Of a DNA stretch of 15,718 nucleotides, positions 3,720-15,718 are shown in pieces. The position numbers were made by a program, and so were the translations under genes. The stretch is taken from positions 1 through 15,718 of IMG/VR virus record IMGVR_UViG_3300029504_000114; one strand, given 5' to 3'. Below the pieces are notes generated by a model. The model saw only the letters and a list, made by a program, of their open reading frames with translations, was not told the origin of the DNA and made no database searches. The DNA comes from a virus (taxonomy: Duplodnaviria > Heunggongvirae > Uroviricota > Caudoviricetes). Numbering within the stretch: position 1 is the stretch's first letter; each line of letters begins with the position of its first letter.

Positions 3720-3946
3720 TGGCTGATGCAATGGATCTCGTACAGCAGCGCGTTGAAGAAGAACGCCAACGCCATATCCGTGCTGCCCGTGCCAAAACGC
3801 CGGGCGTGTCCCGCGTGCTTTGCATTGAGTGTGAAGCGCCAATTCCGCCAGCACGCCGCCGTGCCATTCCGGGTGTGCAGCTTTGCATTACCTGTCAGGA
3901 AATCGCAGAGCTGAAAGGCAAACATTACAACGGAGGTGCTGTATGA
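3719..3946 (+). CDS. TraR/DksA-family C4 zinc-finger protein
   Basis: 75 aa with CIEC...(17 aa)...CITC four-cysteine motif; typical phage TraR-like position upstream of the replication gene. Confidence 0.7.
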   Translation: MADAMDLVQQRVEEERQRHIRAARAKTPGVSRVLCIECEAPIPPARRRAIPGVQLCITCQEIAELKGKHYNGGAV

Positions 3947-4800
3947 GCACCATCCTGAAATGGGCGGGAAATAAAACTGCCATAATGTCCGAACTGAAAA
4001 AACATCTTCCTGCTGGCCCGCGACTGGTTGAACCTTTCGCGGGTTCCTGTGCTGTGATGATGGAGACGGATTATCCCAGCTATCTGGTTGCGGATATTAA
4101 TCCTGATTTAATCAACCTCTATAAAAAGGTTGCCGCTGATTGTGAATCGTTTATATCTCGCGCCAGAGTTTTATTTGAGATCGCAAACAGGGAGGTGGCT
4201 TATTACAACATAAGGCAGGAGTTTAATTACTCAACTGAAATTACTGATTTCATGAAAGCGGTATATTTCCTGTATCTCAATCGTCACGGTTACCGTGGTT
4301 TATGTCGCTATAACAAGAGCGGGCATTTCAACATTCCCTACGGTAATTATAAAAATCCGTATTTCCCTGAAAAAGAAATTCGCGCATTTGCAGAAAAGGC
4401 CCAGCGAGCAACGTTTATCTGCGCCAGCTTTGATGAAACGCTGGCGATGTTGAAGGCGGGGGATGTGGTGTATTGCGATCCGCCGTATGACGGTACGTTT
4501 TCCGGCTATCACACTGACGGCTTCACTGAAGATGACCAGTATCACCTGGCATCTGTTCTTGAACATCGGTCATCAGAAGGACATCCGGTCATTGTTTCTA
4601 ACAGTGACACATCCCTGATCCGTTCGCTGTATCGCAATTTTACTCACCACTACATCAAGGCAAAACGCAGCATCGGTGTGGCAGCTGGCGAGGGTAAATC
4701 AGCAACAGAAATCATTGCTGTTTCCGAGCCGCGCTGCTGGGTGGGATTTGATTATTCGCGTGGCGTGGATAGTTCTGCCGTGTACGGAGTACGTGCATGA
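3943..4800 (+). CDS. dam: DNA adenine methyltransferase (Dam-like, GATC-specific family)
   Basis: Start [11 protein letters not shown] (ATGA overlap with upstream stop); DPPY catalytic motif encoded at 4477-4488; ORF 3883..4800 trimmed to the Met with the coupled start. Confidence 0.85.
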
Positions 4801-7211
4801 GTCATGCCGATATGAACAACTGCTGCGGCTTTAACGAAGCTGCCGCATCGTTCTCATGGAACAGCCCGAAAAAGGCCATTAACCCTTATCTGGACCCGGT
4901 GGAAGTTGCGCCGGTTTCTACGCTTTCAAACCTGATCACTCTGTACGCTGCCGATAACGAGCAGGAACAGCTGCGCCGTGAGGCGCTGAGTGATCAGGTC
5001 TGGGAGCGTTATTTCTTTAATGAATCCCGTGATCCTGTCCAGCGCGAAATGGAACAGGATAAGCTCATTAGTCGGGCAAAGCTGGCGCATGAGCAGCAGC
5101 GTTTTAATCCGGATATGGTCATTCTGGCGGACGTCAACGCCCAGCCTTCCCATATCAGCAAGCCGCTGATGCAACGTATTGAATACTTCAGCAGCCTGGG
5201 CAGGCCAAAGGCTTATTCCCGCTATTTACGTGAGACGATTAAGCCATGTTTGGAACGACTGGAGCATGTACGCGACAGTCAGCTATCTGCATCTTTTCGC
5301 TTTATGGCAAGCCATGAAGGGCTGGACGGCCTGCTGATCCTGCCTGAAATGAGTCAGGATCAGGTGAAACGCCTGTCTACCTTGGTAGCTGCGCATATGA
5401 GTATGTGCCTTGATGCCGCTTGTGGCGATTTGTATGCCACCGATGACGTTAAGCCAGAAGAAATCCGCAATACATGGGAAAGGGTGGCAGCGGAAACCCT
5501 GCGTCTGGATGTCATCCCGCCTGCGTTTGAGCAACTCCGTCGGAAAAGAAACCGCCGTAAACCCGTGCCCTATGAACTCATTCCGGGTTCGCTGGCGCGT
5601 ATGTTGTGCGCCGACTGGTGGTATCGGAAATTATGGAAGATGCGTTGCGAATGGCGGGAAGAGCAGTTGCGTGCAGTCTGCCTTGTCAGCAAAAAAGCAT
5701 CTCCTTATGTCAGCTATGAAGCCGTGATGCATAAACGTGAGCAGCGCCGTAAGTCGCTGGAGTTTTTCCGTTCTCATGAGCTGGTGAACGAAGACGGCGA
5801 CACGCTGGACATGGAGGATGTGGTAAACGCCAGCAGCAGCAACCCAGCGCATCGCCGCAATGAGATGATGGCCTGTGTTAAAGGTCTGGAGCTTATCGCG
5901 GAAATGCGCGGTGACTGCGCCGTTTTCTACACCATCACCTGTCCGTCACGTTTCCATTCCACGCTAAATAACGGCAGGCCCAACCCAACCTGGACAAATG
6001 CGACGGTAAGACAAAGCAGTGATTATCTGGTCGGCATGTTTGCTGCATTTCGTAAGGCGATGCACAAAGCCGGATTGCGGTGGTATGGCGTGCGGGTGGC
6101 TGAGCCGCATCATGACGGTACAGTTCACTGGCACCTGTTGTGTTTTATGCGCAAAAAAGACCGCCGCACCATCACTGCATTACTGCGTAAGTTTGCCATC
6201 CGTGAAGACCGCGAGGAGCTGGGCAATAACACTGGGCCGCGCTTTAAGTCTGAGTTGATTAACCCGCGCAAAGGTACGCCAACAAGCTACATCGCGAAAT
6301 ACATCAGTAAGAACATTGACGGGCGTGGTCTGGCTGGCGAGATCAGCAAGGAAACGGGGAAATCCCTGCGTGATAATGCTGAATACGTTAATGCCTGGGC
6401 GTCTCTGCATCGTGTTCAGCAATTCCGCTTCTTTGGCATTCCGGGGCGTCAGGCTTACCGTGAACTGCGATTGCTGGCTGGTCAGGCGGCAAGGCAACAG
6501 GGGGACAAAAAAGCAGGTGCGCCGGTACTGGATAACCCGCGCCTTGATGCCATTCTGGCTGCTGCTGATGCTGGTTGTTTTGCCACCTACATCATGAAGC
6601 AGGGTGGCGTACTGGTTCCCCGCAAATATCACCTCATCAGAACTGCTTATGAAATCAACGAAGAGCCGACCGCCTATGGCGATCACGGCATTCGTATTTA
6701 TGGCATCTGGTCACCTATTGCAGAGGGCAAGATCTGCACTCATGCCGTGAAGTGGAAAATGGTTCGTAAGGCCGTTGACGTTCAGGAGGCGGCAGCCGAC
6801 CAGGGCGCTTGCGCCCCTTGGACTCGTGGCAATAACTGTCCCCTTGCTGAAAATTTGAACCAACAAGGGAAAGACAAATCAGCTGATGGGGATACCAGAA
6901 CGGACATTACCCGCATGGATGACAAGGAGTTGCACGATTACCTGCACAGTATGAGCAAAAAAGAGCGCCGGGAACTGGCTGCAAGGTTACGCCTGGTGAA
7001 ACCGAAACGGCGTAAAGACTACAAACAGCGAATTACAGACCATCAGCGACAGCAGCTTGTCTATGAGCTGAAGTCCAGAGGATTTGATGGTAGCGAGAAA
7101 GAGGTCGATTTACTCCTTCGCGGCGGCAGTATTCCGTCAGGAGCAGGCCTGCGTATCTTCTATCGGAACCAGCGTTTGCAGGAAGATGATAAGTGGCGGG
7201 ATCTGTATTAA
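4797..7211 (+). CDS. A: Replication initiation protein A (P2 gpA-type rolling-circle endonuclease)
   Basis: 804 aa; motifs [15 protein letters not shown] and [12 protein letters not shown] characteristic of P2/186 gpA; ATGA overlap with dam. Confidence 0.9.
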
Positions 7212-7302
7212 TTACGCGGGTTAACAATTCGTGCTCTTAATAATACCAGGCATATCAGGCTGATGAACGTAAAAAACGTTTTACATCAGTAAGATTATTA
7301 TA

Positions 7303-7322
7303 TACTGTAAATATAAACAGTG
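7303..7322. promoter_or_regulatory. LexA (SOS) box
   Basis: TACTGTAAATATAAACAGTG: CTGT-N8-ACAG at 7305-7320, ~45 bp upstream of the 62-aa ORF; an adjacent partial site ATGTATACAGTA lies at 7326-7337. Confidence 0.6.
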
Positions 7323-7362
7323 GATATGTATACAGTATTGCTTTGGTGTCATAGGAGGAAAG

Positions 7363-7551
7363 ATGCAGGACTATTTTTTGGAGTCTTTGAAGCTCCAGCG
7401 CATTGATTTTTTTCTTAAGCTTGTGGCGGCTAGTGAGTGTAGTGATGAAGAGAAGGGGCTGGCTCTGCAGTGGGTTTCTGAATTGACTGATGAACTCATG
7501 GCAAAAATCAGAACCCACGAATACAACCGCTCAATGGATGTCATCAGCTGA
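7363..7551 (+). CDS. Small protein, possible N-terminal part of a split Tum-like antirepressor
   Basis: 62 aa with strong RBS AGGAGG; directly downstream of the LexA box and upstream of the DinI-like ORF. Confidence 0.45.
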   Translation: MQDYFLESLKLQRIDFFLKLVAASECSDEEKGLALQWVSELTDELMAKIRTHEYNRSMDVIS

Positions 7552-7561
7552 GGTGACTTTT

Positions 7562-7795
7562 ATGCGCATTGAAATAATGATCGATAAAGAGCAGAAGATT
7601 AGCCAGTCTACCCTGGACGCCCTTGAATCCGAGCTTTACCGCAATCTGCGCCCCCTGTATCCCAAAACGGTAATTCGCATTCGCAAAGGTAGCTCTAACG
7701 GGGTGGAACTAACCGGACTGCAACTGGACGAAGAAAGAAAACAAGTGATGAAAATTATGCAGAAGGTGTGGGAAGACGACAGCTGGCTGCATTAA
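7562..7795 (+). CDS. DinI-like protein (Tum C-terminal domain-like)
   Basis: Start MRIEIMIDKEQ at 7562 with RBS GAGGTG; 77 aa; DinI-family pattern (MRIE... near N-terminus, ...WEDDSWLH at C-terminus). Confidence 0.75.
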   Translation: MRIEIMIDKEQKISQSTLDALESELYRNLRPLYPKTVIRIRKGSSNGVELTGLQLDEERKQVMKIMQKVWEDDSWLH

Positions 7796-7930
7796 GAAAC
7801 GTTGCTGGCGTCTGAACTTGCTTCTGGCGTCAGCAAGGTTGAACAACGAGCCCTTGCGAGGCGTTAGCTCTGTAGTGCATGTCTATGCCGCATGAGATCG
7901 CATGATCGTTTGAGGATCGTTTTTGCTAAG

Positions 7931-7954
7931 GCCCGCCAGAACTGGCGGGCTTTT
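7931..7954 (+). terminator. Rho-independent terminator after the tum/dinI-like operon
   Basis: GCCCGCCAG / CTGGCGGGC perfect 9-bp stem followed by TTTTG. Confidence 0.6.
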
Positions 7955-8026
7955 GCGTAGATCATGCAGGTGCATGAAAACCACTACATAAAGCGGGCAG
8001 GCGTGGCGGGGATACGAGCGCGCGCC

Positions 8027-8055
8027 TTGCCTTATATCTATTTGTTCATTAAAAT
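8027..8055 (+). promoter_or_regulatory. Candidate promoter for the retron ncRNA/RT operon
   Basis: TTGCCT (8027-8032), 17-bp spacer, TAAAAT (8050-8055); predicted start near 8062. Confidence 0.3.
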
Positions 8056-8061
8056 CATTAT

Positions 8062-8218
8062 GCTCTTTAGTGTAGGAACATTGGTTCCAGCCGGGTGATT
8101 AGCCAGGCTTAAATTTATTGTCCGGTTTAGGGTTGCGAAAGACACAGATTTCTCCTTCGCATCCCTGCCCGGGGCAGATATGCGAAGGAGAAATCTGTGT
8201 CTTTCGCTGTCTTTAGTG
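8062..8218 (+). ncRNA. Candidate retron msr-msd non-coding RNA (exact ends and a1/a2 unresolved)
   Basis: Non-coding segment directly upstream of the retron-type RT; small stem-loop GGAAC-ATTG-GTTCC (8075-8088) then a 73-nt near-perfect hairpin (8135-8207); bounded by a 9-bp direct repeat TCTTTAGTG (8064-8072 and 8210-8218). Confidence 0.55.
8135..8207. repeat. Long near-perfect inverted repeat / hairpin (candidate msd stem-loop of msDNA)
   Basis: GCGAAAGACACAGATTTCTCCTTCGCAT (8135-8162) is the exact reverse complement of 8180-8207; the centre CTGCCC-G-GGGCAG is itself palindromic. Confidence 0.9.
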
Positions 8219-8273
8219 AAGAGTCAAAGCGCTATGTAAAGTTGCATAGCGCTTTGGTTTTAAGAGGGGTTAT

Positions 8274-9209
8274 ATGCAACTAACTTCTAAAATTATCAGT
8301 AAGTTTAATTATAATAGATTAGCTTTCCAATTACTTTTAAATGAGGCCCCCAAAAAATATAAAGTTTATTATATTCCTAAACGTGGCGCAGGTTTTCGGG
8401 TGATAGCTCAGCCGACAAAGGAACTAAAAAACGTACAGAGATTTATAGTATCTTTGCTACAGCCAAAGCTGCCTGTTCATCATAAGGCAATGGCATATGA
8501 ATATAAAAAAAGTATTAAAGATAATGCATTGTTGCATAAAGATAATAATTATATTCTTAAAATGGATTTTCAGAACTTCTTTAACAAAATTAAACCTGAT
8601 ATATTTTTCTCGAAACTTGAGAACACAGGGCTGAAATTGGATTCATTTGATGAGAACACCCTACGTAATTTGCTTTTTTGGCGTCCGGGAAAAAAGAGAA
8701 GTACAACGTTGATATTAAGTGTAGGGGCGCCAAGCTCACCATTTATTAGTAATTTTGTTATGTATGACTTTGACAAGAGTCTTGATGATTGGTGCCGTAA
8801 CAATGGTATCACTTATTCAAGGTATGCAGATGATATAACTTTTTCAACTAATATTAAGGATATATTGTGCAGGGTTCCTAAGGTGGTAAAAAAAATGTTG
8901 TCGCTCCATGTTCCCGGTCTATCAATCAATGAATCTAAAACAATTTTTACATCGATGGCTCATAATCGGCACGTGACTGGTGTAACACTTACACCTCAGG
9001 GCAATTTATCAATTGGTCGCGATCGTAAAAGGATGCTGTTTGCAAAGATTCATAAATATTCTTTGGGACTCTTATCTTCCGAAGAAATAAATAAAACCAA
9101 AGGGATGATTGCGTTTGCAAATTATTTGGAGGGTGATTTTTTATTAAGGTTACAAAAAAAATATGGTTGTGAGTTAATAACTAAGTTCCTGATGGAAGGA
9201 AACAAATAA
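8274..9209 (+). CDS. Retron-type reverse transcriptase
   Basis: 311 aa; RT motifs YYIPKRGAGFRVI, LKMDFQNFF, VGAPSSP, YSRYADDITFS (YADD at 8823-8834) and the retron-typical NRHVTGV (VTG) motif; RBS AAGAGGGG. Confidence 0.9.
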   Translation: MQLTSKIISKFNYNRLAFQLLLNEAPKKYKVYYIPKRGAGFRVIAQPTKELKNVQRFIVSLLQPKLPVHHKAMAYEYKKSIKDNALLHKDNNYILKMDFQNFFNKIKPDIFFSKLENTGLKLDSFDENTLRNLLFWRPGKKRSTTLILSVGAPSSPFISNFVMYDFDKSLDDWCRNNGITYSRYADDITFSTNIKDILCRVPKVVKKMLSLHVPGLSINESKTIFTSMAHNRHVTGVTLTPQGNLSIGRDRKRMLFAKIHKYSLGLLSSEEINKTKGMIAFANYLEGDFLLRLQKKYGCELITKFLMEGNK

Positions 9210-10843
9210 TGATAAATAAAATGAATTTAGAGACTTGCTATGTTGATTTTTTAGAGTTGGAATCACATGTGATAAACGAGGATTATTTGAAGGAGTCTGT
9301 TGAGCTTCAAAAGCTAATATCTACTTTAAATGAGAGTAAGTTTCATTTAAATAAAATAGGTATACATGATTTTAAACGGATAAGAGAACTACAGATTTCT
9401 TTAGAAGATGATTTGACTGTTTTTGTCGGGGATAACGGATTCGGTAAAAGCACTATTTTGGATGCAATAGCAATTGTTTTGAGTTGGTTGAGATCAAATA
9501 TTGAAAAGGAGAGTAAGCCTGGTACTTATATTAAAAGCCATGAAGTTAATAACTCTGTTGATGTTGAGTATGCATCAATTGATGCAAATATAAAACTCAA
9601 GGACTTTAATACCAGTATTTTGATTACTAAAGCGAAAGAGGGGGCATATTATTCTAGAAATAATGAATTGTTGGAGGTAAAAAAACTTGCAAGTATTTAT
9701 AGACTTGTGAATAAATATGTTGATAATGCAAGCTTGCCTTTGATGGCATATTATTCTATTGCGCGTTCTTATATAGGCGGTGGGGTTGATAGGAAAAGAA
9801 AAAATGCTAAAACTAAAACTGTATGGTCAAAATTCGATGTGTATGATGAAATCGAGTTTGACAGAAATGATTTTACCGATTTTTTTCAATGGCTTGTATT
9901 TCTTCATAACAGAGCTTCACAAGAGAAATTGAGTGAGTCACAAACGACAATCAATGCGTTATTTTCAGATATTCAGAGTTTGAAAGCAACATTAACTCAA
10001 CTATCTGCGATTGATAATATTGATTCAACAGTTATAAAAGGTTTAGAGCTTTCGCTTAAAGAAAAATTGAACTACATGAAATCTCTGCAATCAGGAGAAC
10101 ATAAGTTTAATAATGCAGTATCACTTTATGATAGTGTTATAAATACCATTCTAAAGTTCTTGCCTGAATTTCAGTGGATTAAGCTTGTTTATGGTGATGA
10201 TGATTATAAGATTATCCTTAAAAAAGGAGAGGTTGAATTAGATATTCAACAGTTGTCTCAAGGTGAGAAAACTATATTTACTTTAGTTGGTGATTTGGCT
10301 CGACGTTTAATTTTACTTAATCCTAATTTATCTAATCCTCTATTGGGATATGGGATTGTTTTAATTGATGAAATTGATTTGCATTTGCATCCGCAATGGC
10401 AACAGACAATTATTGAGCGTTTGACATCTACATTCCCAAATGTTCAATTTGTAATTACTACCCATAGCCCACAGGTTTTATCCACTGTTAGCTCTCGTTC
10501 AGTGCGTATTCTACAGGAAGTGGAAGTAGATGGTGTTAATGATTTGATAGTGTCTCACCCCGACTATCAAATAAAAGGTGTTAGTAATCAGGATGCACTT
10601 TTATATGGAATGAGAACTGATCCTATACCCTCTACTAAAGAAAATGGTTGGCTTGAAGAATATAAAAAATTGGTTGAGCTTAATCGTTATAGCAGTGACG
10701 AGGCTCTTTTGTTAAGAGAAAAAGTTATTAAACATTTCGGATTAGACCATCCTTTAGTTCAAGAGTGTGATGATCTTATATCTGTTTTGGAGTTCAAAAA
10801 TAAGATAAATCAGCACTTTTCTGGAAGTAAGGATGTAAAATGA
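9209..10843 (+). CDS. ABC/SMC-type ATPase (PtuA-like retron effector ATPase)
   Basis: 544 aa; Walker A GDNGFGKST (9428-9454), signature-like LSQGEK, Walker B VLIDEIDLHLH, H-loop-like ITTHSP; start overlaps the RT stop (TAATG). Confidence 0.85.
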   Translation: MINKMNLETCYVDFLELESHVINEDYLKESVELQKLISTLNESKFHLNKIGIHDFKRIRELQISLEDDLTVFVGDNGFGKSTILDAIAIVLSWLRSNIEKESKPGTYIKSHEVNNSVDVEYASIDANIKLKDFNTSILITKAKEGAYYSRNNELLEVKKLASIYRLVNKYVDNASLPLMAYYSIARSYIGGGVDRKRKNAKTKTVWSKFDVYDEIEFDRNDFTDFFQWLVFLHNRASQEKLSESQTTINALFSDIQSLKATLTQLSAIDNIDSTVIKGLELSLKEKLNYMKSLQSGEHKFNNAVSLYDSVINTILKFLPEFQWIKLVYGDDDYKIILKKGEVELDIQQLSQGEKTIFTLVGDLARRLILLNPNLSNPLLGYGIVLIDEIDLHLHPQWQQTIIERLTSTFPNVQFVITTHSPQVLSTVSSRSVRILQEVEVDGVNDLIVSHPDYQIKGVSNQDALLYGMRTDPIPSTKENGWLEEYKKLVELNRYSSDEALLLREKVIKHFGLDHPLVQECDDLISVLEFKNKINQHFSGSKDVK

Positions 10844-11523
10844 AATATCTATCTAGGCAAATGCCAGGGCCTTCCGTTCTTAATAAATTTGACTATAGGA
10901 GGGATGATTGGAATTCCCTATCATCAAATGATAAAAAAGAAATATGGGAAGAAATAATAAAAATGCAAGGTAAATTATGTGCTTATTGCGAGAAAAAAAT
11001 AGAGCATCATAAAAGTGGTGGCAAAAATAAAGTTGAGAGGCATATTGAGCATTTTTACAGGAAAAGTTATTACAAAAATTTAACTTTCGAGTGGTCTAAT
11101 TTGTTTGGCTCATGTGGTGAGCCGCAAAGGTGTGGGTTTTATAAGGATAAGCAAAAATATAACGATGATGATTTAATTAAAGCTGATAGACAAAATCCAG
11201 ATGTTTTTTTCCATTTTTTGGAAAATGGTGATGTTCATATTAGAGAAGGCTTGAATGAGAAAGAACACAAAATGGCAGAGGTTACGTTAAGAGTATTTAA
11301 CTTAAACCCGTCCTCAGGAGGAGTCAAGGCGGAAAGAAGACGTGCAATAGAATTAAGCATGACATTAATAAAGGAACTGGTCGGATGTGCATCTCAGCTT
11401 ATTGAATCAGGATGTGAAATTGAAGATGTTAGATCTATGGTCTTTGATGAGTTTAAAAAGAATGTAAAAGATAGATGCTTTACCACTGCGATAAAGCATG
11501 TTTTTGAGAATAGAATGCCTTAA
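10840..11523 (+). CDS. HNH endonuclease (PtuB-like retron effector nuclease)
   Basis: 227 aa; CAYC...HHKSGGKNKVERHIEHF...NL...SCGEPQRC HNH/zinc-finger pattern; ATGA overlap with the ATPase stop indicates translational coupling. Confidence 0.85.
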   Translation: MKYLSRQMPGPSVLNKFDYRRDDWNSLSSNDKKEIWEEIIKMQGKLCAYCEKKIEHHKSGGKNKVERHIEHFYRKSYYKNLTFEWSNLFGSCGEPQRCGFYKDKQKYNDDDLIKADRQNPDVFFHFLENGDVHIREGLNEKEHKMAEVTLRVFNLNPSSGGVKAERRRAIELSMTLIKELVGCASQLIESGCEIEDVRSMVFDEFKKNVKDRCFTTAIKHVFENRMP

Positions 11524-11546: not shown

Positions 11547-12160
11547 TTAATCTATATTATATTCTGAGAAATTGATAATATGCATCCCTATCCACTGATT
11601 AAATTCATGGATTTTTTTTTGTAGAGGTACTAATTCATTTGTCACAAAAACCTTACTAGCTTTCTCCACATCCCCAAAACCCCCAACATTATTAGGCATT
11701 ATCCCCATCATCTGTGGCGGAACGCGATGTGCTGCCATCATGTCATCGCGGCTGACATTTTTGATATTCAGAAACTCATCCTTCGCCGCAACTTCTGACA
11801 AAGGGATGATCTGAAGGCCGTCCTTTTTGCCATTAGGCGAGTACATAAACAGGTTGCGGAAGTTGCCTGGACCTTTGGCGCTTTTCATCGCGTTGCGGAG
11901 ATTGTTCACATCCTCCTGATTCTGCGCGGCGTCGGTCATGTACATGATGAAGCCTGCATGGCTGCCGTTGATGTAATACTTACGGCGGAACAGCGTGGCA
12001 GACTCGTTGAGCAGGGCGGATGGAATGGCAGAAAGATAGCCTGGCAGGCCGTAGATCTCCTGGTTGATGTCCGGTTCCATCAGATGAAAAATGCTGCCTT
12101 TCGTGAACTGATACGGCTGGGTTGTCATACCGTATTGCACAAACCAGTAGGTACCCGCGA
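11547..12160 (-). pseudogene. Portal protein (P2 gpQ-like) fragment lacking its N-terminal part; 3' end possibly altered by the cargo junction
   Basis: Portal-like sequence from MTTQPYQFTKG onward (ATG at 12126-12128) toward lower coordinates; the upstream part of ORF 11547..12347 is antisense to the D' fragment and not portal-like. Junction coordinate approximate. Confidence 0.6.
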
Positions 12161-12554
12161 ACCTGCGAAGAAAGAAAGCACCACGGTGAAGCGTAAGCGC
12201 AGAACTAAGAAGCAGAAGAAAGAGCCAGAAGCGAAGCAGGGCGATTACCTGGTGGGTACGGATGAAAACGTGCTGGTACTTAATCGCACTTATGCCAACC
12301 GGAGCAACGCCGAACGAGCGGCGAAAATGCAGTGGGAACGCCTGCAACGCGGCGTTGCGTCATTCTCGCTACAACTGGCAGAAGGGCGGGCAGATCTCTA
12401 CACGGAAATGCCAGTGAAAGTCAGTGGCTTTAAACAGCCGATAGATGATGCGGAATGGACCATTACGACTCTGACGCATACCATCAGCCCGGATAACGGT
12501 TTTACGACCAGTCTGGAGCTTGAAGTGAGGATTGATGATTTCGAAATGGAATGA
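12160..12554 (+). pseudogene. Tail protein D (P2 gpD-like) C-terminal fragment
   Basis: C-terminal ~130 aa of ORF 11958..12554 (...LNRTYANRSNAERAAKMQWERLQRGV...FTTSLELEVRIDDFEME) resembles gpD C-terminus as recalled; N-terminal 65 aa of the ORF is antisense to the portal fragment. Junction approximate. Confidence 0.55.
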
Positions 12555-12644
12555 TTCTTCGCAATGGAGAACTTTTAAGTTTGCAAAATGGAATAATGCG
12601 GTATCATTATTGTGAATTTAGCAAAAATGGGGAGAACTCGAAAA

Positions 12645-12863
12645 ATGATGATTTGCCCACTGTGTGGAAGTGCCGCCCATACTCGCAGCAGTTTTCAGGT
12701 ATCTTCATTGACCAAAGAGCGTTACAACCAGTGCCAGAACATTAACTGCAGCCATACTTTTGTTACCCATGAAACTTTTGTTCGTTCGATTGCAACGCCA
12801 AAAGAGTCAAATCCGGTTCAGCCGCATCCAATGAAATCAGGACAGGTGGCGCTCTCTCTTTGA
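12645..12863 (+). CDS. ogr: Ogr/Delta-family zinc-finger late transcription activator
   Basis: Start MMICPLCGSAAHTRSS (ATG 12645, RBS GGGGAGA); CPLC...(Ogr-type) ...CQNINCSHTF zinc-finger pattern; ~72 aa. Confidence 0.8.
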   Translation: MMICPLCGSAAHTRSSFQVSSLTKERYNQCQNINCSHTFVTHETFVRSIATPKESNPVQPHPMKSGQVALSL

Positions 12864-12943
12864 CGCTGCCGCCATTTTGTCGCCATCGTTAAAAAACAGT
12901 GTTTCTAACATCATGATTTTAAACAGCTTAAATTTCAGGCAAC

Positions 12944-12986
12944 AAAAAACCCATCAACCTTGAACCGAAATGGCGGGGTTGATGGG
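12944..12986 (-). terminator. Rho-independent terminator on the minus strand downstream of ybjL
   Basis: CCCATCAACC (12950-12959) / GGTTGATGGG (12977-12986) 10-bp stem; on the minus strand it is followed by a T6 run (plus-strand A6 at 12944-12949). Confidence 0.5.
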
Positions 12987-13098
12987 CTCCACAAAATGGG
13001 GACATCAAAGAAAAGCAGTGGCACTAATTAAGACTGATGCCCTGCGGAAAAGTTCTGCGGTTGTGCAAAAAAATTTCATTTTCAGGGCAACTTCAGTT

Positions 13099-14784
13099 TT
13101 ATCCTAATCCTGGCCATACCATGACGATGATTGTCCCTGCCAGCGTCAGCAGGACGTTGGCGATTGCATAGGTGCCCGCATAGCCCAGCGCCGGGATGTT
13201 ACTGCGAGCTGTATCACTGATGATCTCCATTGCCGGCGCGCAGGTACGTGCGCCCATCATTGCGCCGAACAACAGCGCGCGGTTCATTCGCAATACATAA
13301 GCACCGAACAAGAAACAGATAACCACGGGCACCAGACTGACAATCAATCCGGCAATCAACATCTGACCGCCAATCGCGCCCAGGCCGTTATTAATACCGC
13401 TACCGGCGCTCAGACCAACGCCTGCCATAAACACCATCAAGCCGAACTCTTTCACCATGCTTAATGCACCCTGCGGAATGTAACCGAAGGTCGGGTGGTT
13501 AGCACGCATAAAGCCCAGCATAATTCCGGCGAATAACAACCCGGCAGCGTTCCCCATGCCGAAACTGAATGTGCTGAACTGGAAGGTGATCATCCCGATC
13601 ATCAGCCCAATAACAAAGAAGGCGCAGAATGCCAGCAGGTCAGTGACCTGGCTGTGAATCGAGATAAAGCCGATGCGATCGGCGATGGTTTTTACGCGGC
13701 GGGCATCGCCGCTGACTTGTAAAACGTCACCTTTGTTAAGCACGACGTTGTCATCTATCGGCATCTCAATCTGGCTACGAATGACGCGGTTAAGGAAGCA
13801 ACCGTGATCGGTCAACTTCAGTTGTGCGAGACGTTTACCTACAGCGTTATGGTTTTTAACGACCACTTCTTCAGTGACGATACGCATGTCGAGAAGGTCA
13901 CGATCGAAAACTTCTTTACCGTTACGGAAGCTGGGATCGAGTCGGGCATGGGCGTCGGGATAGCCTACCAACGCTATTTCATCGCCCATTTGTAGCACGG
14001 CATCACCGTCTGGATTTGCCAGAATCCCGTTACGTCGAATACGTTCAATGTAGCAGCCGGTTTGTCGATAAATACCCAGTTCACGCAGATTTTTGCCGTC
14101 GGTCCAGGCCACCAGTTCCGGGCCGACGCGATAGGCGCGGATCACCGGTAAATAAACCTTACGGTTGGCATCAGTGTCCAGGCCACGTTCGCGGGCGATT
14201 TGCTGGGCGCTGGTCTGTAAGTCCTGATGCTGCAATTTCGGCAAGTAACGCGCACCAACAATCAAACTCACCAGACCGATTAAATAGGTTAAGGCATACC
14301 CGAGGCTCAGATTATCCAGTGCCAGTGAGAGCTGCCTGCTTTCCATGCCGGAATGACGCAGTGTATCGCCAGCACCGACCAGAACCGGTGTCGACGTCAT
14401 AGAGCCTGCTAACATACCGGCCGTCAGGCCAATATCCCAGCCAAACAGCTTACCTAACCCTAAGGCGATCACCAGCGCACTGCCAACCATCACCAGTGCT
14501 AACATTAGGTAATTTTTCCCATCGCGAAAAAAAATGGAAAAAAAGTTCGGTCCGGCTTCGACCCCGACGCAGAAAATAAACAGCATAAAGCCAAGATTAA
14601 GCGCATCGGTGTTAATGCTGAAATGTTGTTGGCCTAATAACAGCGATACGACTAAAACGCCAATGGAATTACCCAGTTGGATCGAACCAAGTCGTAACTT
14701 TCCGAGACATAGCCCAAGCGCGAGGACCACAAATAATAACAGAATGTAATTCCCATTTAACAATTCGGCGACGTTTATATTCAC
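13099..14784 (-). CDS. ybjL: Putative transporter YbjL (AAE family, with two RCK/TrkA-C-like domains)
   Basis: 561 aa; starts [24 protein letters not shown] and matches E. coli YbjL as recalled; host gene. Confidence 0.9.
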
Positions 14785-15460: not shown

Positions 15461-15718
15461 TCAGGCGTCCAGATTTTCTTTCACCCATGCAGCAAAATCG
15501 GTATAGCCGCCGATATGTTGCTGATCGACAAAAATCTGCGGCACGGTTTCTACGGGTTTACCTGCCTTTTGTTGTAGATCTTCTTTAGTGATCCCTTCCG
15601 CACGAATATCTACATACTGATACTGAAAATCATCGCGTTCATTGCTCAATTTCTCAGCCAGATCTTTTGCACGCACACAGTAAGGGCAACCCGAACGACC
15701 AAAAATAACGGTTTGCAT
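15461..15718 (-). CDS. grxA: Glutaredoxin 1
   Basis: 85 aa with CPYC active site (MQTVIFGRSGCPYCVRAK...); start codon at the last three bases of the window. Confidence 0.9.
   Translation of the reverse strand: MQTVIFGRSGCPYCVRAKDLAEKLSNERDDFQYQYVDIRAEGITKEDLQQKAGKPVETVPQIFVDQQHIGGYTDFAAWVKENLDA

Follow-up and report, generated by a model that had tools for sequence, protein, structure and literature searches.

A short, wobble-paired a1/a2 stem in the msr-msd RNA of a type I-A retron in a P2-like prophage

The locus described here raises the question whether a long hairpin upstream of a reverse transcriptase (RT) gene is the msd of a retron, and where, if it is, the a1/a2 inverted repeats are to be found that should flank it. 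A first-pass annotation, which was made from the sequence alone, had proposed a candidate msr-msd at 8062-8218 of the window (by which we mean the whole stretch of 15,718 nt that was analysed), but had found no canonical a1/a2 around the hairpin. This left it with two alternatives: either a1/a2 are short or imperfect in this case, or the boundaries of the non-coding RNA (ncRNA) differ from the classical layout. Our analysis speaks for the first. With a probability of about 95%, the region 8062-8224, probably continuing to ~8260, is the msr-msd ncRNA gene of the E. coli FORC 82 type I-A retron, which has been characterised before.

The retron and its prophage setting

The window is a P2-like prophage, whose genes include the following:

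1-1131, - strand: integrase
1447-2022, - strand: CI repressor
3883-4800: Dam methylase
4797-7211: replication protein A
8274-9209, + strand: retron reverse transcriptase (Pfam RVT_1; PADLOC RT_I-A, 4.9e-131; PDB 9n69_E)
9209-10843, + strand: PtuA-type SMC-family ATPase effector (PADLOC PtuA, 1.7e-193; ATPase_I-A, 1.2e-151)
10840-11523, + strand: PtuB-type HNH nuclease effector, 227 aa (PADLOC PtuB, 1.5e-117; HNH_I-A, 3.7e-57)

Judged from these matches, the combination of RT, PtuA and PtuB is that of a type I-A retron. In the 2020 classification by Mestre et al., this type is set apart by a retron RT of clade 1 that has a PtuA-like ATPase and a PtuB-like HNH nuclease encoded after it. The RT is identical in 311/311 amino acids to chain E of PDB 9n69, and both effectors find their full-length top matches in the same entry (PtuA with 9n69_A, residues 2-544, 1189.7 bits; PtuB with 9n69_F, residues 1-227, 525.8 bits). 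At the DNA level, positions 7950-8300 are 100% identical to E. coli FORC_082. The retron in the window is a published anti-phage element for which cryo-EM structures and a mechanism exist already, and it brings no new biology; it is the same element as the FORC 82 retron, the chromosomal setting being the sole difference. Among 5,426 complete E. coli genomes, only 4 contain the stretch 7950-8300 at full length; diverged relatives are present in another 4 (DNA search to ~65% identity).

The FORC 82 retron was described by George et al. (Nat Commun 2025, PMC12475279; structures PDB 9N69, 9N6B and 9N6C), where a covariance model placed the ncRNA upstream of the RT. The ncRNA was divided into SL-1, SL-2, SL-3 (a stem in which the 5' end meets the 3' end), a 'clamp' and a termination sequence, and G8, beside A7, was given as the priming guanosine. 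If nucleotide 1 is set at 8063 of the window, A7 corresponds to 8069 and G8 to 8070, as in the published ncRNA. The purified complex contained msDNA of ~90 nt, as estimated on a gel, and RNA of ~40 nt, and degradation of the msDNA by phage flap nucleases was reported to free the HNH nuclease, leading to depletion of tRNA-Ser (PMC12475279). In the window, the ncRNA adjoins the RT on the same strand, with a2 ending at 8224 and the RT starting at 8274. No credible ORF was found across 7960-8273; small ORFs of 28-44 aa over the ncRNA region were set aside as mechanical, the conservation pattern being structural.

Some observations concern the surroundings of the retron. Three type I-A retrons, whose RTs are 56-60% identical, occupy the same slot in E. 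coli P2-like prophages (4797-11523 in the window, and the loci L014 and L015). The slot is flanked by replication and dinI-like genes on one side and by the portal gene on the other, and it appears to be an exchangeable hotspot for defence genes. Downstream of the dinI-like gene, 7925-7956 holds a GC-rich hairpin (GCCCGCCAG / CTGGCGGGC) followed by TTTTGC, which looks like a terminator that shields the retron promoter from upstream transcription. The far side (11547-13100) holds a truncated portal gene of 266 aa, which passes into late-control D / ogr-like sequence; RybB (12941-13019, 105 bits) and then ybjL lie beyond the truncated portal region. Whereas FORC_082 carries its retron within a full P2-like prophage, the late region of the window is largely missing before RybB and ybjL, and most late genes appear to have been lost from this prophage and the retron to have been retained. 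The 11547-13100 junction is fully covered by none of the complete E. coli genomes in the collection.

The a1/a2 stem, the msd hairpin and the transcript ends

The ncRNA and its flanks can be divided into the following features:

8027-8055, + strand: promoter-like site TTGCCT-17-TAAAAT, the sole promoter-like site found on this strand
8062-8069, + strand: a1 inverted repeat GCUCUUUA, 5' end of the msr (MFE fold, helix search, 34 relatives)
8064-8072, + strand: direct-repeat copy 1, spanning a1's 3' part, the branching G and 2 nt more
8070, + strand: predicted branching (priming) guanosine, G in 34/34 relatives
8075-8088, + strand: msr stem-loop 1, GGAAC AUUG GUUCC (MFE fold), of variable length and poorly aligned among relatives
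8089-8109, + strand: msr stem-loop 2, the conserved handle and core of the Rfam msr match (pairing in 100% of cells across 34 sequences; one compensatory pair, UA/CG)
8110-8119, + strand: conserved linker or 'clamp', UAAAUUUAUU
8120-8215, + strand: msd template in register with Retron-Eco7; predicted msdDNA of 96 nt, 5'-TAAAGACAGCGAAAG to CCGGAC-3'
8135-8207, + strand: msd hairpin of 73 nt (28 bp, 2x2 internal loop, 5 bp, 3-nt loop)
8210-8218, + strand: direct-repeat copy 2, spanning the bases that are templated first, the opposing G and nt 1-2 of a2
8216, + strand: opposing guanosine, located across from the branching G where the a1:a2 stem ends, G in 34/34 relatives
8217-8224, + strand: a2 inverted repeat UGAAGAGU (MFE fold, helix search, 34 relatives)
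8225-8256, + strand: hairpin after a2, 14-15 bp, then GUUUU (repeat search, fold, relatives, STnc400 match)

Folding of 8040-8280 as RNA gave -111.1 kcal/mol, compared with a shuffle mean of -62.5 (z = -11.2; 0 of 200 shuffles were as good). In this MFE fold, 8062-8069 pairs with 8217-8224, and G8070 is left unpaired opposite G8216. The a1:a2 stem has 8 bp, two of which are G·U (U8068·G8218 and G8062·U8224), which is why no exact inverted repeat is visible around the hairpin. The earlier failure to find a1/a2 was thus correct with respect to exact repeats, but a helix containing wobble pairs is present. The family consensus of a2 is UAAAGAGC, from which the window deviates with G at 8218 and U at 8224, each deviation yielding one of the two G·U pairs.

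On the window sequence alone, this helix does not stand out. Between the flanks, 4 helices of at least 8 bp were found where 4.1 are expected by shuffling, which places a1/a2 at chance level, and in a helix search that allowed G·U pairs, three 9-bp helices outranked it. The search therefore contained the a1/a2 helix without singling it out, which explains why a reader lacking comparative data missed it. For the same reason, the helix was tested across relatives, and its support is comparative. A 9-bp helix between 8049-8057 and 8255-8263 was rejected, since its 5' strand would share bases with the -10 hexamer and precede the predicted start.

Relatives were collected from an RT search of genome contigs, from a scan of IMG/VR with the msr pattern GCCAGRCTNNAANTTATTG and from two diverged E. 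coli loci. Only those with an RT downstream were kept, such that about half of the IMG/VR matches were discarded, and 34 distinct ncRNAs were aligned, with a1 anchored on CTTTAG. Among these, 98.9% of the a1/a2 cells are paired, and three of the eight pairs are compensatory. The outer pairs illustrate this, with counts of GC 20, GU 6, AU 3 and UA 3 at one position, CG 29, UA 4 and UG 1 at another, and UA 21, UG 8 and CG 5 at a third. For the structure as a whole, the observed covariation was reached by 0 of 500 shuffles, and sliding the partners by 1-3 columns lowered pairing from 90% to 40-45%. With a1/a2 recognised as a short 8-bp stem, the layout of the ncRNA is classical: a1, branching G, msr, msd and a2 follow one another in the usual order. 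Of the two alternatives given at the outset, it is therefore the first, a short and imperfect a1/a2, that holds, and the second can be abandoned.

The hairpin enclosed by this stem had been described accurately, to the base, by the first-pass annotation: its arms at 8135-8162 (GCGAAAGACACAGATTTCTCCTTCGCAT) and 8180-8207 are exact reverse complements. An inverted-repeat search extended them to 8135-8170 / 8172-8207 (36 nt, 94% complementary). In the 34 relatives, 93% of the msd stem cells are paired, with compensatory change at 25 of 29 pairs. Folding of the reverse complement of 8120-8215 as DNA gave -41.1 kcal/mol (z = -14.0). The hairpin had been taken for an msd of 70-80 nt. It is indeed the core of the msd, but the template is longer than that; by the Eco7 register it would comprise 8120-8215 and give rise to an msDNA of ~96 nt, or 92 nt if trimmed. 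This prediction agrees with the ~90 nt estimated on gels for the FORC 82 complex (PMC12475279). The 5' end of the msDNA is expected at TAAAGACAG (trimming of four bases in the manner of Eco7 would shift it to GACAG), and 8120-8125 would form the terminal RNA-DNA heteroduplex according to the same register. On the msr side, stem-loop 2 is bound by the RT thumb in the published structures (PMC12673091, PMC12475279), and TTATTG at 8115-8120 is invariant in the family.

With respect to the length of the hairpin, L070:3166-3292 corresponds to L015:4002-4176 minus a 48-nt tip of the msd hairpin, the two ncRNAs being otherwise identical, and the deletion falls between the halves of the palindrome, at GAATTC. 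In L013, the msd hairpin has just 17 nt. These two cases are natural or assembly-derived length variation in the msDNA 'scaffold'.

Covariance-model searches found two Rfam families matching along the full length of their models, msr (RF00170) at 8062-8126 (45.9 bits, gathering score 52, E = 5.4e-7) and STnc400 (RF02058) at 8128-8265 (73 bits, gathering score 80, E = 3.3e-14). Since both matches lie below the gathering scores, a default scan is silent at the retron ncRNA: across the whole window it returned RybB only, and the retron models surface with E-value thresholds only. The default thresholds of Rfam thus miss the retron ncRNA of this window entirely. The proposal of an msr-msd upstream of the RT is nevertheless borne out by its published identity, its fold and its covariation in the 34 relatives.

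The start of the transcript had been equated with the first copy of a 9-bp direct repeat. The promoter-like site at 8027-8055 predicts a start near 8062/8063, two bases ahead of this copy. A TANNNT hexamer that ends 4-9 nt upstream of a1 is found in 32 of the 34 relatives, compared with 6 of 34 at a control offset, which argues that transcription start at the a1 edge is a feature of the family. At the other end, the position of a2 (8217-8224) moves the 3' boundary from 8218 to at least 8224, and the transcript probably continues through 8225-8256. At this site after a2, a stable hairpin is present in nearly all 34 relatives, with no relation in sequence, and in about half of these it has a T-rich tail. 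In the window, the hairpin and its GUUUU precede the Shine-Dalgarno sequence of the RT (AAGAGGGG) and its ATG at 8274, and they probably constitute a leaky terminator, or the ncRNA's 3' end, before the RT ribosome-binding site. The conserved hairpin together with the STnc400 evidence supports a primary ncRNA of ~200 nt with a leaky terminator, which would probably extend from its predicted 5' end at 8062 to its predicted 3' end at ~8260. A further observation at this site is a perfect 9-nt complementarity (AGTTGCATA / TATGCAACT) between 8240-8248, in the loop and 3' arm of the hairpin after a2, and 8273-8281, at the RT start codon. The match may be due to chance, or in transcripts that read through it could serve to cover the start codon.

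The direct repeat and other readings of the region

The 9-bp direct repeat had also been described as bracketing the unit. Its copies are exact at 8064-8072 and 8210-8218 (TCTTTAGTG; a third, unrelated copy lies at 15582), but the true brackets of the ncRNA are a1 and a2. In 9.6% of mononucleotide shuffles of 8040-8280, at least one 9-mer is repeated, so that the repeat is not significant on its own. Its core, CUUUAG before both Gs (that is, a repeat of at least 6 nt), is found in 16 of the 34 relatives, and the remaining 18 share 1-4 nt. The full 9 nt occur only in the window and in L023; in the window, they depend on a U instead of the usual C after the branching G, and on a G instead of the usual A at position 2 of a2. 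We read the direct repeat as two conserved priming-site motifs, CUUUAG before each G, whose resemblance is due to chance, and not as a boundary marker. A target-site duplication was rejected, since the repeat encloses the msr-msd without the RT and the effectors and its copies are internal conserved motifs of the ncRNA.

It is conceivable, though unlikely, that the direct repeat is functional. Since 8210-8215 repeats a1's 3' half, the first six bases of the msDNA (TAAAGA) mimic a2 and could pair with a1 once RNase H has cleared away the template, and this could aid the displacement of a1:a2 or set up the 5' processing, which in Eco7 is attributed to ExoVII. The 16 relatives in which a repeat of at least 6 nt ends on both Gs are in line with this, as are matching variants that occur in both copies in two lineages (TTCTTTAG in L023 and L075; TCCTTTAG in L051 and L074). 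Furthermore, the Eco7 structure lacks the first 4 nt of the msdDNA, and a cleavage site for ExoVII is marked at this place (PMC12673091). Copies from the same sequence are identical at 5.03 of 9 positions on average, compared with 4.74 for shuffled partners, a value that 11 of 5000 shuffles reach in a test that ignores shared ancestry. However, since 18 of the 34 relatives have a repeat of 1-4 nt only (for instance ATCAATG in L002 and ATCTGAG in L008), the repeat cannot be required. Moreover, copy 2 includes the foot of the msd stem, where 8210-8212 (UCU) is paired with 8130-8132 (GGG) and where C and U fit equally well, such that C/T variation in this copy is neutral for pairing. The length of 9 nt in the window also hinges on the two lineage-specific substitutions mentioned above, and chance yields a repeated 9-mer in roughly one of ten shuffles.

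Slightly less likely again is a more specific proposal, namely that the quasi-palindrome UCUUUA-G-UGAAGA centred on the opposing G, which amounts to the direct repeat, is itself under selection, the 5' end of the msDNA being a DNA copy of a2. If this were true, the msDNA 5' end would replace a2 on a1 after synthesis and thereby direct 5' processing or release in those type I-A and II-A1 lineages that carry it.

Two further readings would deny that the region encodes a retron RNA, and both are very improbable. According to the first, the 73-nt hairpin is a transcription terminator, or an operator or similar protein-binding palindrome of the prophage, and has nothing to do with the RT. A long perfect palindrome that is intergenic in a P2-like prophage and is followed by a T-containing stretch (CTGTCTTT) might suggest as much. 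However, the upstream operon has a GC-rich hairpin and T-run of its own (7925-7956), and the 73-nt hairpin sits downstream of a conserved promoter-like site and is enclosed by the covarying a1/a2 stem. Its sequence varies freely while pairing is maintained without G·U, and it accompanies retron RTs in unrelated genomes, among them those of Vibrio, Shewanella and Methylococcaceae.

According to the second reading, the ncRNA acts in trans as a small regulatory RNA like STnc400; in its favour, STnc400, the best match in Rfam, carries the description of a gammaproteobacterial sRNA. In Salmonella, STnc400 was mapped between STM3844 and STM3845, with a precursor of ~190 nt and a product of ~55 nt, but STM3845 and STM3846 are part of the St-85 retron, from whose msr-msd msDNA is made, and STnc400 therefore appears to be the St-85 ncRNA. 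The Rfam 'STnc400 sRNA' family appears to represent the msd half plus terminator of St-85-type retron ncRNAs. Types I-A and II-A1 share one ncRNA-RT module. The label is a matter of naming and does not denote a different function.

Proposed msDNA synthesis and comparison with other retrons

From the sequence and the comparison with characterised retrons, we propose the following course of events for the msr-msd ncRNA. Transcription would begin at the 5' edge of a1, driven by the promoter-like site at 8027-8055. The a1 repeat (8062-8069) would then pair with a2 (8217-8224), setting G8070 opposite G8216. The RT would grip msr stem-loop 2 (8089-8109), prime from the 2'-OH of G8070 and copy the template from 8215 back to ~8120, where the linker (8110-8119) would block the active site and bring synthesis to a stop. 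The resulting DNA of ~96 nt would contain a 33-bp hairpin, the reverse complement of 8135-8207. For the subsequent steps we rely on published work, according to which the DNA hairpin would scaffold four PtuA ATPases and the PtuB HNH nuclease in an inactive state, until phage flap nucleases (the T3 exonuclease, D15 of T5) cut the DNA, the nuclease is freed, tRNA is cleaved and the infection aborts.

The closest comparison is with Retron-Eco7 (Ec78), likewise of type I-A, whose operon is organised alike with ncRNA, RT, PtuA and PtuB (PMC12673091, PMC12819146). In Eco7, the a1:a2 stem ends at the branching G0, which opposes G127; SL2 spans +18 to +39 and the linker +40 to +49, with A47 blocking the active site and U49 flipped out, and +50 to +55 form a terminal RNA-DNA heteroduplex of 6 bp (PMC12673091). 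The templated part covers nucleotides 1-77, of which the first four are cut off at the drawn ExoVII site (PMC12673091). The window shares this plan, with SL2 at +19 to +39 and with A at +47 (8117) and U at +49 (8119), in agreement with A(-47) and U(-49) of Eco7. The Eco7 msDNA, like that of FORC 82, is a scaffold that is cut by the phage nuclease D15. The two elements differ in the distance from the branching G to the opposing G (146 nt in the window, 127 in Eco7), in the length of the msDNA (~96 nt as predicted here, 77 nt in Eco7) and in the reported tRNA target, which is Ser for FORC 82 and Tyr for Ec78. The Ec78 RT chains score 281-288 bits with the RT of the window, compared with 698 for the FORC 82 chain, and Ec78 thus is a sister element of another lineage; none of the 8 E. 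coli genomes that matched with at least 65% identity has an Ec78-like ncRNA.

The ncRNA-RT module is also common to St-85 / Sen2 of type II-A1, which is covered by the Rfam models STnc400 and msr. In the window, the alignment with the STnc400 model takes in the msd hairpin, a2 and the hairpin behind it, and shows many compensatory differences. The effector, in contrast, is an NDT-like toxin in St-85 / Sen2 and PtuAB in the window. Retron-Eco1 (Ec86) has the same order of a1, branching G, msr stem-loops, msd hairpin and a2, and the same termination mechanism, although its RT is distant from that of the window (98.5 bits). The a1/a2 of Ec86 are longer and form an exact repeat.

In sum, a reader with nothing but the sequence located the retron ncRNA correctly, and the sole puzzle that was left, the whereabouts of a1/a2, is settled by a stem that is short and wobble-paired. 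The wobble pairs also tell something about the level at which the two helices are maintained. Across the 34 sequences, 18 G·U cells occur in the 8-bp a1/a2 helix, compared with 1 in the conserved msd stem. A G·U pair in RNA turns into mismatched C·A once it is copied into cDNA, and the counts are therefore in line with an msd stem that is selected as DNA and an a1/a2 helix that is selected as RNA. The scarcity of G·U in the msd relative to a1/a2 is thus a simple computational signature of DNA-level as opposed to RNA-level selection.
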